A stretch of 64,000 nucleotides of DNA, taken from sequence record MK327928.1; one strand, written 5' to 3'. This DNA comes from Escherichia phage vB_EcoM_G2133. A program made the translations under genes and the position numbers. Shown here in pieces: positions 25,449 to 55,710 of this stretch. Every line of letters begins with the position of its first letter. The first letter of the stretch is position 1. Under the pieces are notes generated by a model. It saw only the letters and a list, made by a program, of their open reading frames with translations. It ran no database searches and was not told the DNA's origin.

Positions 25449-25478
25449 ATAGTACCACAGAAGAACAGTCTTGTAAAC
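25449..25478 (-). promoter_or_regulatory. early promoter variant (-10 TACTAT), member of a repeated promoter-leader family
   Basis: GTTTAC (25478..25473), 18-bp spacer, gtggTACTATAC. Confidence 0.45.
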
Positions 25479-49727: not shown

Positions 49728-50121
49728 TTTTACTAAATATACAGAATAAGATGGAACAGACTATATAAGCACCACACACAGATTGAACTAATACCATTCC
49801 AAAGAACCAAACAATATTATCAAACAATGTCTGTTTTACGTCGAAAGGACGTAAACTTACAGTAATATTATCGCCTTTTTCTATTGATGAATACATCTCT
49901 GGTGAAATATATTCGCTAAATCTATAACCGTCTTTGAGTTCATATACAGCAATAAACGATAAACTAGACCCCTTTCCTTGAGTTCCTGTAAGGGTATTAA
50001 CTACAGTAACATCATAATCTTTATAATGCATATAATCATTAATTGCGTAATAACCATATGCAATTGCTATACATAAACAACATATCAATAAATTCAATCT
50101 TTTAATTATCAACTGTTTCAT
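49714..50121 (-). CDS. membrane protein (two predicted transmembrane segments)
   Basis: 135-aa ORF. Confidence 0.45.
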   Translation of the reverse strand: MKQLIIKRLNLLICCLCIAIAYGYYAINDYMHYKDYDVTVVNTLTGTQGKGSSLSFIAVYELKDGYRFSEYISPEMYSSIEKGDNITVSLRPFDVKQTLFDNIVWFFGMVLVQSVCGAYIVCSILFCIFSKIEIE

Positions 50122-50176
50122 AATAATCTCAATTAAAAGGGCTTAGAACCATTATACCATCCTTGGTATAAAGCGG

Positions 50177-50704
50177 TTATGCGAGTACCGTCTTTAACCG
50201 TTCTTCAAACTTCCGAAGAGTATTCTGGCGTTCAGCTCTTTGCTTTTTGTAAGTTTCAATACGCTCTGAAATGAGAGTGTATCGTTCATTTACTGATTCT
50301 TTCATAAAATCAGGAATTTCACGAGAAGCTTTAATCTCGTCAAATTTATCAATAACAGCTTGCTCTTCAGCAATTAAGTTATCATACATCAAAATATCTT
50401 TCTTGATGAACTCAATATCTTCTTGAGTTACACGAGATAATTTAGATGCTTTATCCTTTTTGTACTGTTCGTTAGTATCACGAGACCAGTGTAATGTACG
50501 ATTTTTATTCGTATTCTTGTAAATTTCTACAATACCAATCTCATCGATAATAACGATCCAATTCCAACGGGATTTGTAAATTTGTCCTCCATCAACAGTG
50601 ATTTCACCTCCAATTGAGATGTCATTAAAGAACTTGCTTTGTGCTTCAGATTTAAATTTACCATCGTTGTAATTTACCAGGTTGAAAATATCTTTAGCGT
50701 TCAT
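50177..50704 (-). CDS. hypothetical protein (start ATG 50704)
   Basis: 175 aa from MNAKDIFNL; GGAGG ribosome-binding site. Confidence 0.45.
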   Translation of the reverse strand: MNAKDIFNLVNYNDGKFKSEAQSKFFNDISIGGEITVDGGQIYKSRWNWIVIIDEIGIVEIYKNTNKNRTLHWSRDTNEQYKKDKASKLSRVTQEDIEFIKKDILMYDNLIAEEQAVIDKFDEIKASREIPDFMKESVNERYTLISERIETYKKQRAERQNTLRKFEERLKTVLA

Positions 50705-50732
50705 TTTGTGTTCCTCCGTAGTTGATAGTTGT

Positions 50733-50762
50733 ATAGTACCACAGAGGAACAGTCTTGTAAAC
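50733..50762 (-). promoter_or_regulatory. early promoter variant (-10 TACTAT), repeated promoter-leader family
   Basis: GTTTAC (50762..50757), 18-bp spacer, gtggTACTATAC. Confidence 0.45.
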
Positions 50763-50764
50763 AA

Positions 50765-51067
50765 CTAAAAGAAACTTCTTTCACAATTTTTTCCACTGAA
50801 CCAAGCGCTCACTGCTTTCTTAGTCTCAGGAGCAGTGTTATCCATAAACCATTCAAAGGCAGCCTTTTTATGATTCTGGAGGGCTTCTCGGGCTTTAATC
50901 TGCTCACGGTCTATTAACACTAACATATGAGCCTTTCTTGTCACCAGGGGCTTCTTATGATTTTTTGAATACTCCCAATCATTTGTCCATCGCATCGTTG
51001 TTGCGAACTGAAATACTGCTTCTTTAATTTTAGTTTCGTAAATTTCACGAGCCTTTGAGTATAACAT
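50765..51067 (-). CDS. hypothetical protein (start ATG 51067)
   Basis: 100 aa from MLYSKAREIYE; GGAGG ribosome-binding site. Confidence 0.4.
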   Translation of the reverse strand: MLYSKAREIYETKIKEAVFQFATTMRWTNDWEYSKNHKKPLVTRKAHMLVLIDREQIKAREALQNHKKAAFEWFMDNTAPETKKAVSAWFSGKNCERSFF

Positions 51068-51168
51068 CACTACCTCCATTTACCAGTTTAATTCTAATCA
51101 TCTTTTTGATGGCAGTCCATATAATCTATTTCTGAACTGCCTTTTTGTCATAGAAGGCCTCTTATGAA

Positions 51169-52137
51169 TTATTTCAGAAGAGTAACCTCAGCAATTTCTT
51201 CCCAACCGTTTTTGTCGGTCATAATAAAGTCAGCAAGATAAAGTGCAGTACGCAGTGAAACATTGCGTAAACGGTTAACATTGACTTTCATCCATGATAA
51301 TGCTTTATAAGTTTCTTCATCAGAAAGACCGCGCTTTTGCATCATGTCGGTTGAAAGAATAACATCTTCAACCCTGACCATAATTTCTTCATTAGTGTGA
51401 ACACCCAAATCTAAATAAACTGAGCGGGACACTAATGCTTGTAAATGTGGAGCAAGTTTAGTACCACGGTCTAATTCGCGGTCAATATCAACGTTTGTGA
51501 TAAAAACAATCGTTCCTTTAAATTCAAACTCACGCTCAATGCCTTTTTCTTCTAAGTAAGAAGATGCAGTGCTCCAGCAGACTTTACGGGTCTCTCCAGT
51601 GTCCAGAGCAGCTTTCAGAAGATTAAGAATGTCCATATCAGAGAAAACATCCACATCATCAATCAAAAGGACAGAATTCTCTTCACGATTATTCCAGAGC
51701 TGTTCATAAAGACCGATACCAGAGATTTTACCGTTAATGCTTTTATATTCAATGTATCCAATATCATTTGCTTTATTTAAAGCTTTATCTAAAGAATACG
51801 TTTTACCAATACCTGCTGCTCCCGAGATAATTAATGAACGAATGTTTCCGTTAATAATACCATTCGTCATCATTCCCATAACATTAAATCTTTTATTAAT
51901 GCGGGTTTTCATATCTTCATATGATTCTTTAACTTCTTCAACTTTTACACCATCATATGAAATGTCTGATTTGTAAACCCAAACACCGCGACGTTTACCG
52001 TCAATTTCAACAAAAACTTTACCATCTCCTTGTGCATCTACTGGAGCATTATCTGGGAACCATTCGCCTAAGAGCTCAAAAGTTCCAGAGATTTCTTTAC
52101 CGAAGTAGATACCCTTATTGATAGTTACAGTTTTCAT
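51169..52137 (-). CDS. P-loop ATPase (AAA-like)
   Basis: 322 aa from MKTVTINKG; Walker A GAAGIGKT; Walker B LLIDDVD. Confidence 0.55.
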   Translation of the reverse strand: MKTVTINKGIYFGKEISGTFELLGEWFPDNAPVDAQGDGKVFVEIDGKRRGVWVYKSDISYDGVKVEEVKESYEDMKTRINKRFNVMGMMTNGIINGNIRSLIISGAAGIGKTYSLDKALNKANDIGYIEYKSINGKISGIGLYEQLWNNREENSVLLIDDVDVFSDMDILNLLKAALDTGETRKVCWSTASSYLEEKGIEREFEFKGTIVFITNVDIDRELDRGTKLAPHLQALVSRSVYLDLGVHTNEEIMVRVEDVILSTDMMQKRGLSDEETYKALSWMKVNVNRLRNVSLRTALYLADFIMTDKNGWEEIAEVTLLK

Positions 52138-52174
52138 TTTATTCTCCAAATCTGTATCAGTAGTTGATAGTTGT

Positions 52175-52204
52175 ATAGTACCATAAAGCTTTATGCTTGT
52201 AAAC
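52175..52204 (-). promoter_or_regulatory. early promoter variant (-10 TACTAT), repeated promoter-leader family
   Basis: GTTTAC (52204..52199), 18-bp spacer, TACTATAC. Confidence 0.45.
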
Positions 52205-52235
52205 CGTTTTGTGAAAAAATTTTTGAAATAAAAAA

Positions 52236-52253
52236 GGGGACCTCTAAGGCCCC
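52236..52253 (-). terminator. G/C stem-loop with one bulge
   Basis: ggggacc-tctaa-ggcccc after the stop of ORF 52263..52748. Confidence 0.4.
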
Positions 52254-52262
52254 TTTATGCTT

Positions 52263-52748
52263 TTATTCCATTTCTATTATATGCATGTTCTTTTTGCTAT
52301 CAAAATATATGTTTTTAACTGTTAACTCCGAATTAATTGGCAATAAAAACTCTCTTTCATAATCTACCATACAAAGGTTATCATAAAGCTTGTTAAGCTT
52401 ATCATCGTCAGTTTGGCCAGATTCTTCAATTGCGATTAAATTTTCTAAAATGTCAATCATAGCAGTCGAATAGTCAAAAACGTTTGCATTTTTTAACACT
52501 ACTAAAACATTAGTCATATAGCGTTCTGCAGCAAACGTTTCAGCTATATGAGACTCACTGCTAAAGGAAGTTATTCTTTTAAATTTGATTCTCCTATTAA
52601 CTTCAAACTTATAAGATAGCACTTCCTCTATTGTAAGTCCTCTAAAAAGTGTGTCTTTAATCTCAAGTTTGTCTTTAATGTAATCATTAACACGCTTATG
52701 ATTAAAATTATTAATTTTGTTGCCAAGGCATTGCATTAAAATATGCAT
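52263..52748 (-). CDS. hypothetical protein
   Basis: 161-aa ORF. Confidence 0.45.
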   Translation of the reverse strand: MHILMQCLGNKINNFNHKRVNDYIKDKLEIKDTLFRGLTIEEVLSYKFEVNRRIKFKRITSFSSESHIAETFAAERYMTNVLVVLKNANVFDYSTAMIDILENLIAIEESGQTDDDKLNKLYDNLCMVDYEREFLLPINSELTVKNIYFDSKKNMHIIEME

Positions 52749-52794
52749 TGTATTCTCCTCAATTTTTAAAGAGCAATTAATTAACTACACGTAT

Positions 52795-52824
52795 ATTATA
52801 ATATGCTTTGCGGCAGAAGTAAAC
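52795..52824 (-). promoter_or_regulatory. T4-type early promoter
   Basis: GTTTAC (52824..52819), 18-bp spacer, TATAAT (52800..52795). Confidence 0.55.
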
Positions 52825-52854
52825 AACTTTGTGACGTCATTTTAAACAAAAAAA

Positions 52855-52870
52855 GGAGCCCGAAGGCTCC
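52855..52870 (-). terminator. stem-loop ggagcc-cgaa-ggctcc
   Basis: 6-bp stem, UUCG loop, after the stop of ORF 52874..53884. Confidence 0.5.
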
Positions 52871-52873
52871 CTA

Positions 52874-53884
52874 TCATTTATAATAACTTCGATGGTTTTC
52901 AAGATAGACTTTCTCAAGGAAGTCATCCCAAAAACCCATGTCCACTTTTTGCTGCATACCGTTCTTAGAAGCTTCAGTAGATGCTGCTTCTACTTGATCG
53001 ACCACATCTTCCAAAAACTCTTGAACGGTTTTAAATGGATGTTTACCCAACTTCACGTCGAGAATAAATGGAGCGTCTTGAAGTGGATAAACCAAGTCGC
53101 CAGTTTTGTAAATTTCCAATAGTTGAAGTCCACCACGACAGGCATGGCTCAGAGCTTTCCAGTCAATACCTTCATTGGCTTCGGCCTTACGAGCACGTTC
53201 ACCATATTCAGCATCTAATTTGTTCAGTGACTGCTTAAGCTCAATAAGAGAAAGAGTTGTCTGATATTTACGACCCAACACTGTGTAAAACGTTTGTGGG
53301 CCTGTTTTCTCATGATTATGGAACACCCATTCACAGAATTCGTTTTCTGGAAGACGATGCTTAATATCTTCAACTTTAGTACGACGCTGCTTAATGGAAC
53401 CGTCTTCTTGGTAATCAACCCATTGCTCAGGGATTTGATTAACTACTTTCAATACATCACGTAATGCAGCCAAACGAGAACCCTTGACACCGTATTTAGA
53501 AGCTTGCTTGCGGACATATCCTAAATAGGATTTCATGTTAGTCGTATAAAAACGAGAACGGTTGTCTTGAATAAACTTCCATACATCAGGCAAATCGGAT
53601 TTAACCACTAGTTCAGGTGGAGTGTGAAGCATATCCAACGCTACAGTTTCACCATCTGCCGCTAATTTAAAGAAATATTTAAGACTGTATAGTTCATGGT
53701 CAATATCATCTTTAGTGTTTTTAGATGATGTGTTGTTAGTGTTTTTACTCATGTGCTCTTTGACATTTCCGATAAGAATATCACGAGCAGGAGGAACAAA
53801 AATTTCTTTAAAATCTACATCAGATTCTGGGGTAGAAGTTCCATAAAGATGACTACCAAAATAAGACTTAACTACAGTTTTCAT
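52874..53884 (-). CDS. predicted nucleotidyltransferase (pol-beta superfamily fold)
   Basis: 336 aa from MKTVVKSYFGSHLYGTSTPESDVDF (GS-x10-DxD signature). Confidence 0.45.
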   Translation of the reverse strand: MKTVVKSYFGSHLYGTSTPESDVDFKEIFVPPARDILIGNVKEHMSKNTNNTSSKNTKDDIDHELYSLKYFFKLAADGETVALDMLHTPPELVVKSDLPDVWKFIQDNRSRFYTTNMKSYLGYVRKQASKYGVKGSRLAALRDVLKVVNQIPEQWVDYQEDGSIKQRRTKVEDIKHRLPENEFCEWVFHNHEKTGPQTFYTVLGRKYQTTLSLIELKQSLNKLDAEYGERARKAEANEGIDWKALSHACRGGLQLLEIYKTGDLVYPLQDAPFILDVKLGKHPFKTVQEFLEDVVDQVEAASTEASKNGMQQKVDMGFWDDFLEKVYLENHRSYYK

Positions 53885-54647
53885 TATTAGACCTTTCATA
53901 ATCTTCATTAAATTGTACAATCAATCGATGATAATTAGATTTTGGATATCCTAATTTACTTATATAAGTTCCGAATGACCCACGTTTAGGTCTATTTAAT
54001 TTAATCCATAACTTATAAAGTAAGTCATAGTCTTGCCAATGTTTACCAGTTCTTTGTCTAATTTTAGATGAATTTGATTGTTTCTTTTTAGTTTCAAAAT
54101 TATTCAAAGATTTTTTGACTGCAGCAGAGTGTTTTTCTTTAACTCCCGGTCGTTTAAAAGCAGCTTTCACCCCTTTAGATATTTTTTCTTTAACTTCCGG
54201 TTTGTTTTGTGCTTCTAACTGGGATTCTGAAATTTTAGCCCTTATTTCAGGAAGACTTAATGTTATCGAACGTTTTTCTCTGTATTCATTAGACTTCCAC
54301 ATTTCTTTCATTGTATTAGAATGTATTTTTGAAAATTTTTCTCTAACTAACTGATATCCTCTTGAAGTTAATTTGAGATTTCTTCCTAAAGAATCTTCTC
54401 CAAAATTATAAAATGACCACCATGCATAAATTAATCCAGGCGAATTATAATGAATTTTAGCTAAAAGCCAATGGGCTATAAAATGCTCTCTAGCTGTTAA
54501 TAAAACTAGATTATCAGAATCATCATTACCACCAATACAAGATGGAATAATATGATGCTTTTCCGTATAAAAATTTAATTTAGATTTATCTAATTTTCTG
54601 AGTTTTCCTTTCTTAATTAAATTATTATATACTTTAGTATAATTCAT
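53868..54647 (-). CDS. HNH homing endonuclease (Mob-like), intact
   Basis: 259 aa; EKHHIIPSCIGGNDDSDNLVLLTAREHFIAHW. Confidence 0.65.
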   Translation of the reverse strand: MNYTKVYNNLIKKGKLRKLDKSKLNFYTEKHHIIPSCIGGNDDSDNLVLLTAREHFIAHWLLAKIHYNSPGLIYAWWSFYNFGEDSLGRNLKLTSRGYQLVREKFSKIHSNTMKEMWKSNEYREKRSITLSLPEIRAKISESQLEAQNKPEVKEKISKGVKAAFKRPGVKEKHSAAVKKSLNNFETKKKQSNSSKIRQRTGKHWQDYDLLYKLWIKLNRPKRGSFGTYISKLGYPKSNYHRLIVQFNEDYERSNNENCS

Positions 54648-54721
54648 TGGTTCTTCGTCTCATTTAATTTTGCTTTGCATTTATAACACATGTCTGTTCC
54701 ACTTGAAATAAACATATTTCC

Positions 54722-55255
54722 TCACTTCGAAATCATAGTTGGAATGACAGAATCAAGATAAGTCTTTAGCGCAATAGCTTCGTCTTTGGTAAATGTGACA
54801 ATATGTGATCGAAAATCGTCAATTTGGCGAATAGTTAAGACATCTCCCTCTTCATAACATTTTGATACATTTAAAAGAGTTTCATCATTCTGATTGCAAG
54901 CGTTAGTAATAATAGCATTGCAATTTTTGAGCCATTTTAAACTATGTTTTCTTTCATTAGAATAATAAAAATATTTAATCTTAGCTATAAAACTATCCCA
55001 ATGGATAACTGATAAACACATTGACTCACTTTTAATATTAAATCCTGGGCATGAAGAATAAAAATGAATTTTGTGCTCATCATTGATGCTTACAATTTTA
55101 TCAGTATAAGGATATTCAATTTGGGTTAAATGAATAATTTCACTAGATGTAAAATACAGCATATCGTCTTCTTGCGTCAAACGATACATATTATTTACTT
55201 TTTCTATAGCCAATTCACCAAAAAGTGGACTAACTTCTAATACTAATCGTTTCAT
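54722..55255 (-). CDS. hypothetical protein
   Basis: 177-aa ORF. Confidence 0.45.
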   Translation of the reverse strand: MKRLVLEVSPLFGELAIEKVNNMYRLTQEDDMLYFTSSEIIHLTQIEYPYTDKIVSINDEHKIHFYSSCPGFNIKSESMCLSVIHWDSFIAKIKYFYYSNERKHSLKWLKNCNAIITNACNQNDETLLNVSKCYEEGDVLTIRQIDDFRSHIVTFTKDEAIALKTYLDSVIPTMISK

Positions 55256-55256
55256 A

Positions 55257-55535
55257 TTAATCCTTTTTATTTGCGCTGATTTGTTCTAAAATTTTAGAGT
55301 ATTCCTTTGTATCAGATTTACGTACAATCGATACGCTATACGGCATACTATCGGTGTCTTTTATAAAGCGTTCCAAATGACACTCTAATAAAATTTCTGG
55401 ATTATAAATCGTGTACATCAAATTACCTGTTGCTCCACGATATTGACAGATTTCTACTGATTGAACATCATTCCATAATTTTGTTAAGACCAAATCACCT
55501 ACTTCTAATTTAGGAAAGCCCATGTTATTCACCAA
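55257..55535 (-). CDS. hypothetical protein
   Basis: 92-aa ORF. Confidence 0.45.
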   Translation of the reverse strand: MVNNMGFPKLEVGDLVLTKLWNDVQSVEICQYRGATGNLMYTIYNPEILLECHLERFIKDTDSMPYSVSIVRKSDTKEYSKILEQISANKKD

Positions 55536-55710
55536 TTAAAGTTTCAATATAAGAATCAAGATTTACTTTAGCTTCTTCCATAAGAGTTTTGTATTTAATC
55601 TTGTTGGCATGTCCGGAGAAAGCTGATTCATCAATAATTGTTGATGTATGAACAGCTTTACTATACGTCTCAATTAATTCTCTTAATTTAAAAGCCTGCT
55701 CACTTGTCAT
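55525..55710 (-). CDS. hypothetical small protein
   Basis: 61-aa ORF. Confidence 0.4.
   Translation of the reverse strand: MTSEQAFKLRELIETYSKAVHTSTIIDESAFSGHANKIKYKTLMEEAKVNLDSYIETLIGE

Follow-up and report, generated by a model that had tools for sequence, protein, structure and literature searches.

Gene content of the nrdC.9 to nrdC.11 interval

Within the 64,000-nucleotide stretch of Escherichia phage vB_EcoM_G2133 (record MK327928.1) analysed here, hereafter the window, positions 50765-53884 carry four consecutive open reading frames (ORFs) of 100, 322, 161 and 336 amino acids (aa) on the minus strand. A preliminary description, made from the letters alone, had reported these ORFs, read the 322-aa product as a P-loop ATPase (GAAGIGKT, LLIDDVD) and the 336-aa product as a pol-beta-type nucleotidyltransferase (signature FGSHLYGTSTPESDVDF), and likened the pairing to nucleotide-signalling or counter-defence modules. 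Our ORF check confirmed the coordinates and sizes, the motifs are present as quoted, and both domain calls were right, the proteins being an AAA+ ATPase and a nucleotidyltransferase of the pol-beta superfamily. The region itself is a T-even (Tequatrovirus-like) segment, and a megablast search with positions 50000-55300 matched 846 phage records, the best of them approximately 97% identical. Indeed, comparison with the annotated T4 and RB3 records and by tblastn identified three of the four ORFs as T4 nrdC.9, nrdC.10 and nrdC.11 (approximately 97% nucleotide and 99-100% protein identity). These are ordinary, already catalogued early genes of T4 and T2 rather than a novel cluster; Nolan et al. 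(2006) had already recorded the AAA match of nrdC.10 and a COG3541 nucleotidyltransferase match for nrdC.11 (PMC1524935). The remaining, 161-aa ORF is an extra gene with no T4 counterpart at this locus. The preliminary description gave its size correctly and missed its identity as a Mod-family ADP-ribosyltransferase (ART). The features of the region are collected in Table 1.

Table 1. Genes and transcription signals in and around positions 50765-53884 of the window
Feature	Coordinates	Strand	Properties or basis
T4-type early promoter before nrdC.8	50733..50761	-	TTTACA-N17-TACTAT; motif scan
nrdC.9, DUF7203	50765..51067	-	100 aa; Pfam PF23833 2.2e-15, PHROG 1931 1.6e-36
nrdC.10, AAA+ ATPase	51169..52137	-	322 aa; Walker A GAAGIGKT, Walker B LLIDDVD, FITN, VSRS, SLRTAL
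Early promoter of nrdC.10	52175..52203	-	TTTACA-N17-TACTAT, in T4 too; motif scan
ART cassette, promoter + gene + terminator (PeSL-type exchange unit)	52231..52824	-	identity steps
Intrinsic terminator ending the ART cassette	52237..52253	-	hairpin, GGGGCCTTAGAGGTCCC + T-run
Mod-family (R-S-ExE) ADP-ribosyltransferase	52263..52748	-	161 aa; PHROG 832 "RNA polymerase ADP-ribosylase" 6e-24
Early promoter of the ART cassette	52795..52823	-	TTTACT-N17-TATAAT, followed by ribosome-binding site GAGGAG; motif scan
Intrinsic terminator directly after the nrdC.11 stop codon	52853..52872	-	hairpin
nrdC.11, RlaP-family pol-beta nucleotidyltransferase	52874..53884	-	336 aa; G10-S11, D22-x-D24
mobD, free-standing HNH homing endonuclease, intact	53868..54647	-	259 aa; 100% identical to T4 MobD

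In transcriptional order mobD is followed by nrdC.11, the 161-aa gene, nrdC.10 and nrdC.9. The four genes do abut the intact HNH gene, as the preliminary description had it, the start of nrdC.11 overlapping the mobD stop by 17 nucleotides, but they lie downstream of it, not upstream, in the direction of transcription. Apart from the ART insertion, this interval shares its gene set, order and strand with the corresponding region of T4 (HM137666 and the T4 genome), including the terminator and early promoter that precede nrdC.10, and NrdC.9 is 100% identical to its T4 counterpart. In T4, nrdC.8, nrdC.9, nrdC.10 and mobD are early at both the RNA and the protein level, and nrdC.11 is early as RNA and middle as protein (PMC9697503 supplement). 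Moreover, the block from nrdC.11 to mobD.3 can be deleted from T4 (PMC9825161).

We consider it likely, with a probability of roughly 0.8, that this part of the variable nrdC-tk region is made up of independently inherited, dispensable early genes that are neighbours but do not constitute a functional module, its parts being the RlaP nucleotidyltransferase, the AAA+ ATPase, the ART cassette and mobD. Our analysis demonstrates which genes these are, their families and motifs, the missing conserved linkage, the transcription signals and the transfer of the cassette; the enzymatic activities and biological roles named below are predictions from sequence. As a discovery the region matters little, since its ORFs are known from T4 and T2 and the proposed ATPase-nucleotidyltransferase module fails.

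Base composition is unremarkable

The preliminary description had also pointed, with reservations, to stretches of 40-45% G+C, which it rated as weak evidence. The G+C content of the region is 0.359 as compared to 0.343 for the window (z = 1.16, the 88th percentile of 3120-bp windows), and 60-bp windows with at least 40% G+C make up 35% of the region versus 20% of the window. Codon-usage z-scores stay within +/-1.8 for every gene, inside the spread of 69 reference ORFs of the window, and the only outliers are mild ones, namely the G+C content at third codon positions of nrdC.9 (z = 2.25) and the overall G+C content of mobD (z = -2.1). We therefore rejected the idea of a compositional anomaly. 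Matches to ordinary conserved T-even genes and a formal analysis free of compositional deviation were the two outcomes that the preliminary description had itself named as counting against its proposal, and essentially both were obtained.

nrdC.10 and nrdC.11 form no conserved pair outside close T-even relatives

The proposal that the ATPase, the ART and the nucleotidyltransferase form one counter-defence or nucleotide-signalling module, in which for example the ATPase would partner a nucleotidyltransferase that makes or destroys a nucleotide signal, draws on the arrangement of the genes. They share a strand, adjoin one another and are each expressed early; the adjacency of nrdC.10 and nrdC.11 persists in T-even-like genera down to approximately 68% identity; and the ART cassette occupies exactly the slot between them in two genera. 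Surveys of more distant loci argue against it. Among 80 viral NrdC.10 loci (30-78% identity), only the three closest have a NrdC.11 relative at a distance of 6 kb or less, and the 77 distant ones have none, such that the two genes are neighbours only among relatives of at least 73% identity. Similarly, in 67 NrdC.11 loci examined from the other side, NrdC.10 was near in none of the 44 distant ones, and it is also missing from seven T-even-like loci that retain nrdC.11 at 64-82% identity. Furthermore, an intrinsic terminator closes nrdC.11 and a separate early promoter precedes nrdC.10, in T4 as well as in the window. The two genes are thus separate transcription units and do not constitute a conserved pair outside close T-even relatives.

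The protein families point in the same direction. Cyclic-oligonucleotide-based antiphage signalling systems (CBASS) and related CD-NTase modules resemble the window solely in having a pol-beta-superfamily nucleotidyltransferase near a P-loop ATPase. They differ from it in that the enzyme of the window is an RlaP protein, not a CD-NTase, no effector or sensor genes accompany it, and the pairing is not conserved. Searches with PADLOC models gave no match for the nucleotidyltransferase, the ATPase or the ART, the one weak match being that of the MobD HNH region to a type IV restriction model (E = 0.0023). The ART, for its part, is present in only approximately 43 of approximately 846 related records. 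Distant RlaP loci contain a multi-copy neighbour of 197 aa that had looked ART-like by eye; it gave no ART signal, and a recurrent association of ART with RlaP was therefore rejected. Taken together, these observations make a joint module very improbable. What survives of the earlier proposal is its counter-defence component, which is plausible for the nucleotidyltransferase and possible for the ART.

Two points weigh on the other side. The adjacency of nrdC.10 and nrdC.11 is kept across many T-even-like genera at 68-100% identity, and a lineage-specific functional link between the two genes is therefore possible. In addition, T4 early transcripts are able to read through terminators.

The 161-aa product is a Mod-family ADP-ribosyltransferase

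By BLASTP the 161-aa protein is 30% identical to the ModB of the window (E = 1e-13) and 27% identical to ModA (E = 7e-10), and its relatives carry the precomputed Pfam tag PF26816. The Pfam models searched gave no match, but none of them represents ModA, ModB or the ART, and this negative carries no information. It aligns with T4 ModA and ModB over approximately 145 residues, its R-S-ExE residues matching theirs one for one; throughout the subfamily and in both ModA and ModB, the residues R36, S61, E131 and E133 do not vary. The arginine R36 aligns with R73 of ModB, which is catalytically essential (PMC10468400), and the R-S-E clade of the Mod family is a recognised family of viral ARTs (PMC9503650). 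By motif and homology, then, the protein is a Mod-family R-S-E ADP-ribosyltransferase with an intact motif. It shares early expression signals with ModA and ModB but differs from them in size (161 aa versus 200 and 207), in lying approximately 40 kb from modA-modB, in having a promoter-terminator cassette of its own and in its sporadic distribution. RefSeq already lists it in T2, in the same slot, as T2_097, "RNA polymerase ADP-ribosylase", and our literature search turned up no experimental study of it. T4 and RB3, in which nrdC.10 and nrdC.11 directly adjoin, lack the gene, which corresponds to an insertion of approximately 610 bp in the window.

Might the ORF instead be a decaying, truncated duplicate of modA or modB that has lost its activity? 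The first approximately 37 residues of ModA and ModB are indeed missing, and the family is tiny, with three clusters at 90% identity in 5.8 billion proteins, the entire Mod family comprising only 30 representative clusters in 1.84 billion proteins. The ORF is nevertheless intact in four phages of two genera, and in five of six pairs the ratio of nonsynonymous to synonymous substitution rates lies at 0.15-0.21. None of the four catalytic residues varies, and the gene comes with an early promoter that fits the consensus, a strong ribosome-binding site and a terminator of its own. Because the protein is only 27-30% identical to ModA and ModB, it is also not a recent duplicate. Decay is accordingly improbable, and the protein is most likely a third Mod-type arginine ADP-ribosyltransferase whose early action in infection would be the NAD-dependent modification of host proteins. 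T2-type phages thus carry a third Mod-type ART that T4 lacks, which gains relevance from the known RNAylation of host proteins by ModB; this ART is one possible source of phenotypic differences between T2 and T4.

The ART gene lies in a recently exchanged promoter-terminator cassette

The ART cassette sits between the terminator of nrdC.11 and the promoter of nrdC.10. In T4-type phages, PeSL units, which combine a stem-loop with the promoter consensus TTTACW-N17-TAYWAT, have been described by Arbiol et al. (2010) and Comeau et al. (2014) (PMC2839356, PMC4122927; consensus from the latter). The promoters of the window match this consensus exactly. A scan with it returned 15 sites, all of them on the minus (coding) strand, where 0.45 would be expected by chance; they include those at 2484, 6773, 25449, 47756, 50733, 52175, 52795 and 56655. 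Some copies share identity beyond the consensus. For example, those at 25449, 50733 and 52175 have GGTACTAT in common, and such extended identity could serve as a substrate for recombination.

Comparison with Citrobacter phage CF1 delimits the exchanged segment. From 52824 to 52231 the cassette is 89-97% identical to that phage at the nucleotide level, whereas the flanking genes are far more diverged (nrdC.11 48-80%, nrdC.10 54-81%), with sharp steps in identity at both edges of the cassette. These steps indicate a recent transfer of the ART cassette between phage genera. The terminator/early-promoter units that lie between T-even early genes would have recombined with each other and so brought in the gene as a self-contained cassette. 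As in the PeSL cassettes of other T4-type phages, a stem-loop terminator and then a promoter flank a variable gene in a hyperplastic region, one that some close relatives have and others lack, and we find no essential difference between those cassettes and this one, which adds a recognisable enzymatic cargo and a visible inter-genus transfer. It provides a clean example of PeSL-mediated gene shuffling with identifiable cargo.

NrdC.11 is an RlaP-family nucleotidyltransferase

NrdC.11 is 99% identical to the T4 and T2 proteins and belongs, by profile match, to the RlaP family: residues 14-146 match Pfam PF10127 with 44.6 bits (cutoff 23; E = 1.9e-11), and PHROG 388, "nucleotidyltransferase", is matched at 2e-136. 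The catalytic motif hG[GS]...DxD is present, with G10-S11 and D22-x-D24 invariant in 40 relatives of 22-49% identity, and D59, D60, D62 or D84 are candidates for the third carboxylate. A KNTKDDxD block is also invariant among the relatives; however, this peptide was the seed pattern of the NrdC.11 locus search, and its invariance is discounted as partly an artefact for that reason.

Recent work provides a precedent for the activity of this family. According to a December 2025 preprint, two Pseudomonas RlaPs (PfRlaP and PaRlaP) add one or two nucleoside monophosphates to the 3'-OH ends of RNA, prefer Mn2+ and a mimic of cleaved tRNA, and do not act on DNA or protein; RlaP treatment partly restores the aminoacylation of nucleotide-deficient tRNA (PMC12776372). 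The same study explicitly names T4 NrdC.11 as an RlaP member. Iyer et al. (2021) made the same RNA-repair prediction for phage RlaPs and tied it to RloC, which removes the wobble base (PMC7824862). NrdC.11 shares with the Pseudomonas enzymes the hG[GS] and DxD motifs and may also share a layout in which a largely helical C-terminal region follows the N-terminal nucleotidyltransferase region; distant phage relatives lie near RNA-repair genes.

The neighbourhoods of distant NrdC.11 relatives lend the repair role independent support. At loci L109-L117 (L numbers denote our locus labels) the order is HD-phosphatase/P-loop kinase, Rnl1-type RNA ligase (Pfam RNA_lig_T4_1, 9e-27) and RlaP. A ligase gene likewise adjoins the RlaP gene at L130, and at L135, L145, L148 and L149 an enzyme of the CCA-adding/poly(A)-polymerase type is directly adjacent to the RlaP relative. 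It is thus plausible that NrdC.11 is an RlaP-type RNA-repair enzyme serving in counter-defence against anticodon nucleases. In this mechanism NrdC.11 would restore the nucleotide at the ends of cleaved tRNAs, as after the action of RloC-type anticodon nucleases, and the phage Pnk and RNA ligase, encoded elsewhere, would then reseal the restored molecules into functional tRNA, so that NrdC.11 would act as an RNA-repair accessory in counter-defence. NrdC.11 offers a tractable T4 model for the idea that phages put back the nucleotides that RloC and other "smart" anticodon nucleases have cut out, ahead of religation.

Several observations weigh against this assignment of activity. No RNA-repair gene adjoins nrdC.11 in the window or in its T-even relatives, where, unlike for PfRlaP and PaRlaP, there is neither an RtcB/RtcA operon nor a neighbouring ligase. 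T4 NrdC.11 falls in cluster 5 of the published sequence similarity network and the characterised RlaPs in cluster 1a (PMC12776372), and the RNA-repair activity of NrdC.11 is a predicted one. An AlphaFold2 (AF2) model built from 21 close homologues was poor, with a mean predicted local distance difference test score (pLDDT) of 54.6, values below 50 in the nucleotidyltransferase domain and a helical C-terminal half. Sequence and profile searches of the Protein Data Bank (PDB) returned no solved relative, only coiled-coil noise from troponin, PfRlaP being either not among the chains searched or too divergent. NrdC.11 could alternatively be a pol-beta nucleotidyltransferase with a role outside repair, such as an MntA-like antitoxin adenylyltransferase, an enzyme that modifies proteins or small molecules, or one that adds tails to phage or host mRNA. 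Beyond the absence of a neighbouring ligase in T-even phages, the separate network cluster and the poor model, a weak match to the NCBIfam MntA motif (E = 0.067) would fit such a role. Against it stand the Pfam RlaP match well over threshold, the repeated position of relatives (28-50% identity) beside Rnl1-type ligases, HD-kinases and CCA-adding enzymes, the exclusive action of the characterised RlaPs on RNA, and the presence in T4 of compatible 5'-P/3'-OH repair enzymes. We regard a non-repair role as unlikely and favour RNA repair as the activity of NrdC.11.

Some of the distant RlaP loci have features of their own. In L109-L117 and L130, which are IMG/VR contigs, a compact RNA-repair cassette lies approximately 1-3 kb upstream of the RlaP gene and consists of an HD-phosphatase + P-loop kinase protein (380 aa), a small ORF and the Rnl1-type ligase (373 aa), followed by RlaP; a kinase resembling Zeta-toxin/AAA_33 proteins is encoded further upstream. 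A second recurrent context for RNA-end repair is seen in L135, L145, L148 and L149, and also in L134, where short (approximately 255 aa) and long RlaP relatives lie beside the tRNA nucleotidyltransferase of the CCA-adding/poly(A)-polymerase type. Several unrelated proteins that flank the cassette in L109-L117 start with MKL(Y/N)(E/D)(I/L)(L/F). We take this start to resemble the T4 capsid-targeting sequence of internal proteins (MKTYQEFIAE), and the proteins that carry it might be packaged and injected.

NrdC.10 is a phage-restricted AAA+ ATPase

In the AF2 model of NrdC.10, which is confident (pLDDT 88.6), residues 1-61 form a beta-domain at the N-terminus, and the AAA+ core and the lid come after it. 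The two Walker motifs, the alpha/beta core and the helical lid together place the protein among the AAA+ ATPases, and no domain other than AAA+ was found save for the 60-residue beta-domain. A STAND NTPase identity found no backing, the nSTAND3 profile scoring 20.2 bits against a cutoff of 27.2 and covering the P-loop region only. The family is restricted to phages: searching 185,579 species genomes gave three confirmed matches, one of which is a 167-kb phage contig, and all relatives in BFVD are uncharacterised, one of them coming from Roseobacter siphophage RDJL Phi 1.

As for its place among AAA+ proteins, NrdC.10 shares with the clamp-loader/initiator type (T4 gp44, RFC, Hda/DnaA, Cdc6/ORC) the core and lid and a collinear series of Walker A, hhhhDDxD, sensor-1 asparagine, an SRS motif (compare SRC) and sensor-2 arginine. 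Its IDDVD, FITN, VSRS and SLRTAL motifs are collinear with those of the gp44 clamp loader of the window, although the alignment is not significant (hhalign E = 0.1). The best profile match in the PDB, to Cdc6, is weak (E = 0.07), as are the matches to the PHROG clamp-loader and NCBIfam Hda families. Placement in the clamp-loader/initiator clade is hence a candidate assignment with no significant profile preference. Since the motif series resembles that type, our best guess is that NrdC.10 would have a nucleic-acid-associated remodelling or loading role.

Distant relatives of NrdC.10 sit among uvsX, gene 32 and uvsW, and 42 of the 60 loci that could be evaluated encode UvsW no more than approximately 3 kb downstream. 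After clustering at 50% identity, however, the linkage is confined to one of seven clusters. We therefore downgraded it as independent evidence and treat it as the synteny of one large clade and a weak functional hint. A bolder reading would make NrdC.10 an unrecognised, phage-restricted AAA+ family that partners the machinery of recombination and replication, perhaps as the missing loader or remodeller of recombination-dependent replication, and, separately, the ART a fourth T-even ADP-ribosyltransferase with its own target that is spreading as a mobile cassette; we regard this reading as unlikely.

The clade in question, a large environmental group of T4-like phages (L006-L082, from IMG/VR), places the NrdC.10 gene between uvsX/gene 32 and uvsW, usually less than 1 kb from the uvsW helicase gene. 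In 22 of these loci an unannotated protein of approximately 374 aa is encoded directly downstream of the NrdC.10 homologue, and conserved ORFs of unassigned function (166, 161, 152 and 233 aa) lie nearby.

mobD and the insertion hotspot

MobD (listed in PMC2988022) matches PHROG 655 at 1.3e-56, and its Pfam HNH match is below threshold at 18.2 bits. The gene is sporadic, being missing from T2 and from most NrdC.11 loci, and we assign its product to the HNH homing endonucleases; mobD would thus be a selfish element inserted beside nrdC.11. Other T-even phages have different insertions in the interval. RB3 carries a seg-like endonuclease gene between nrdC.9 and nrdC.10, T2 has the ART gene and neither mobD nor the seg-like endonuclease gene, and T4 has mobD. 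With a different inserted gene in each of the three phages, the interval qualifies as a hotspot of insertion. In the window, T2-type ART and T4-type mobD occur together; T2 lacks mobD and T4 lacks the ART, which makes the window a mosaic of the two types. Among the matches listed, no phage record covered more than 89% of 50000-55300, and the combination of ART and mobD may be new to the collection.

Gene presence in this hyperplastic region varies elsewhere too. Downstream of mobD.1, positions 55257-55710 of the window hold two small ORFs, of 92 and 61 aa, that are present in RB3 (RB3_101 and RB3_102) and not annotated in T4. In the GenBank and RefSeq records matched here the nrdC.x genes, including those for the AAA+ ATPase and the RlaP nucleotidyltransferase, are widely mislabelled "thioredoxin", a name propagated from nrdC, and the RefSeq labels near mobD in T4-like phages show an apparent gene-name collision.

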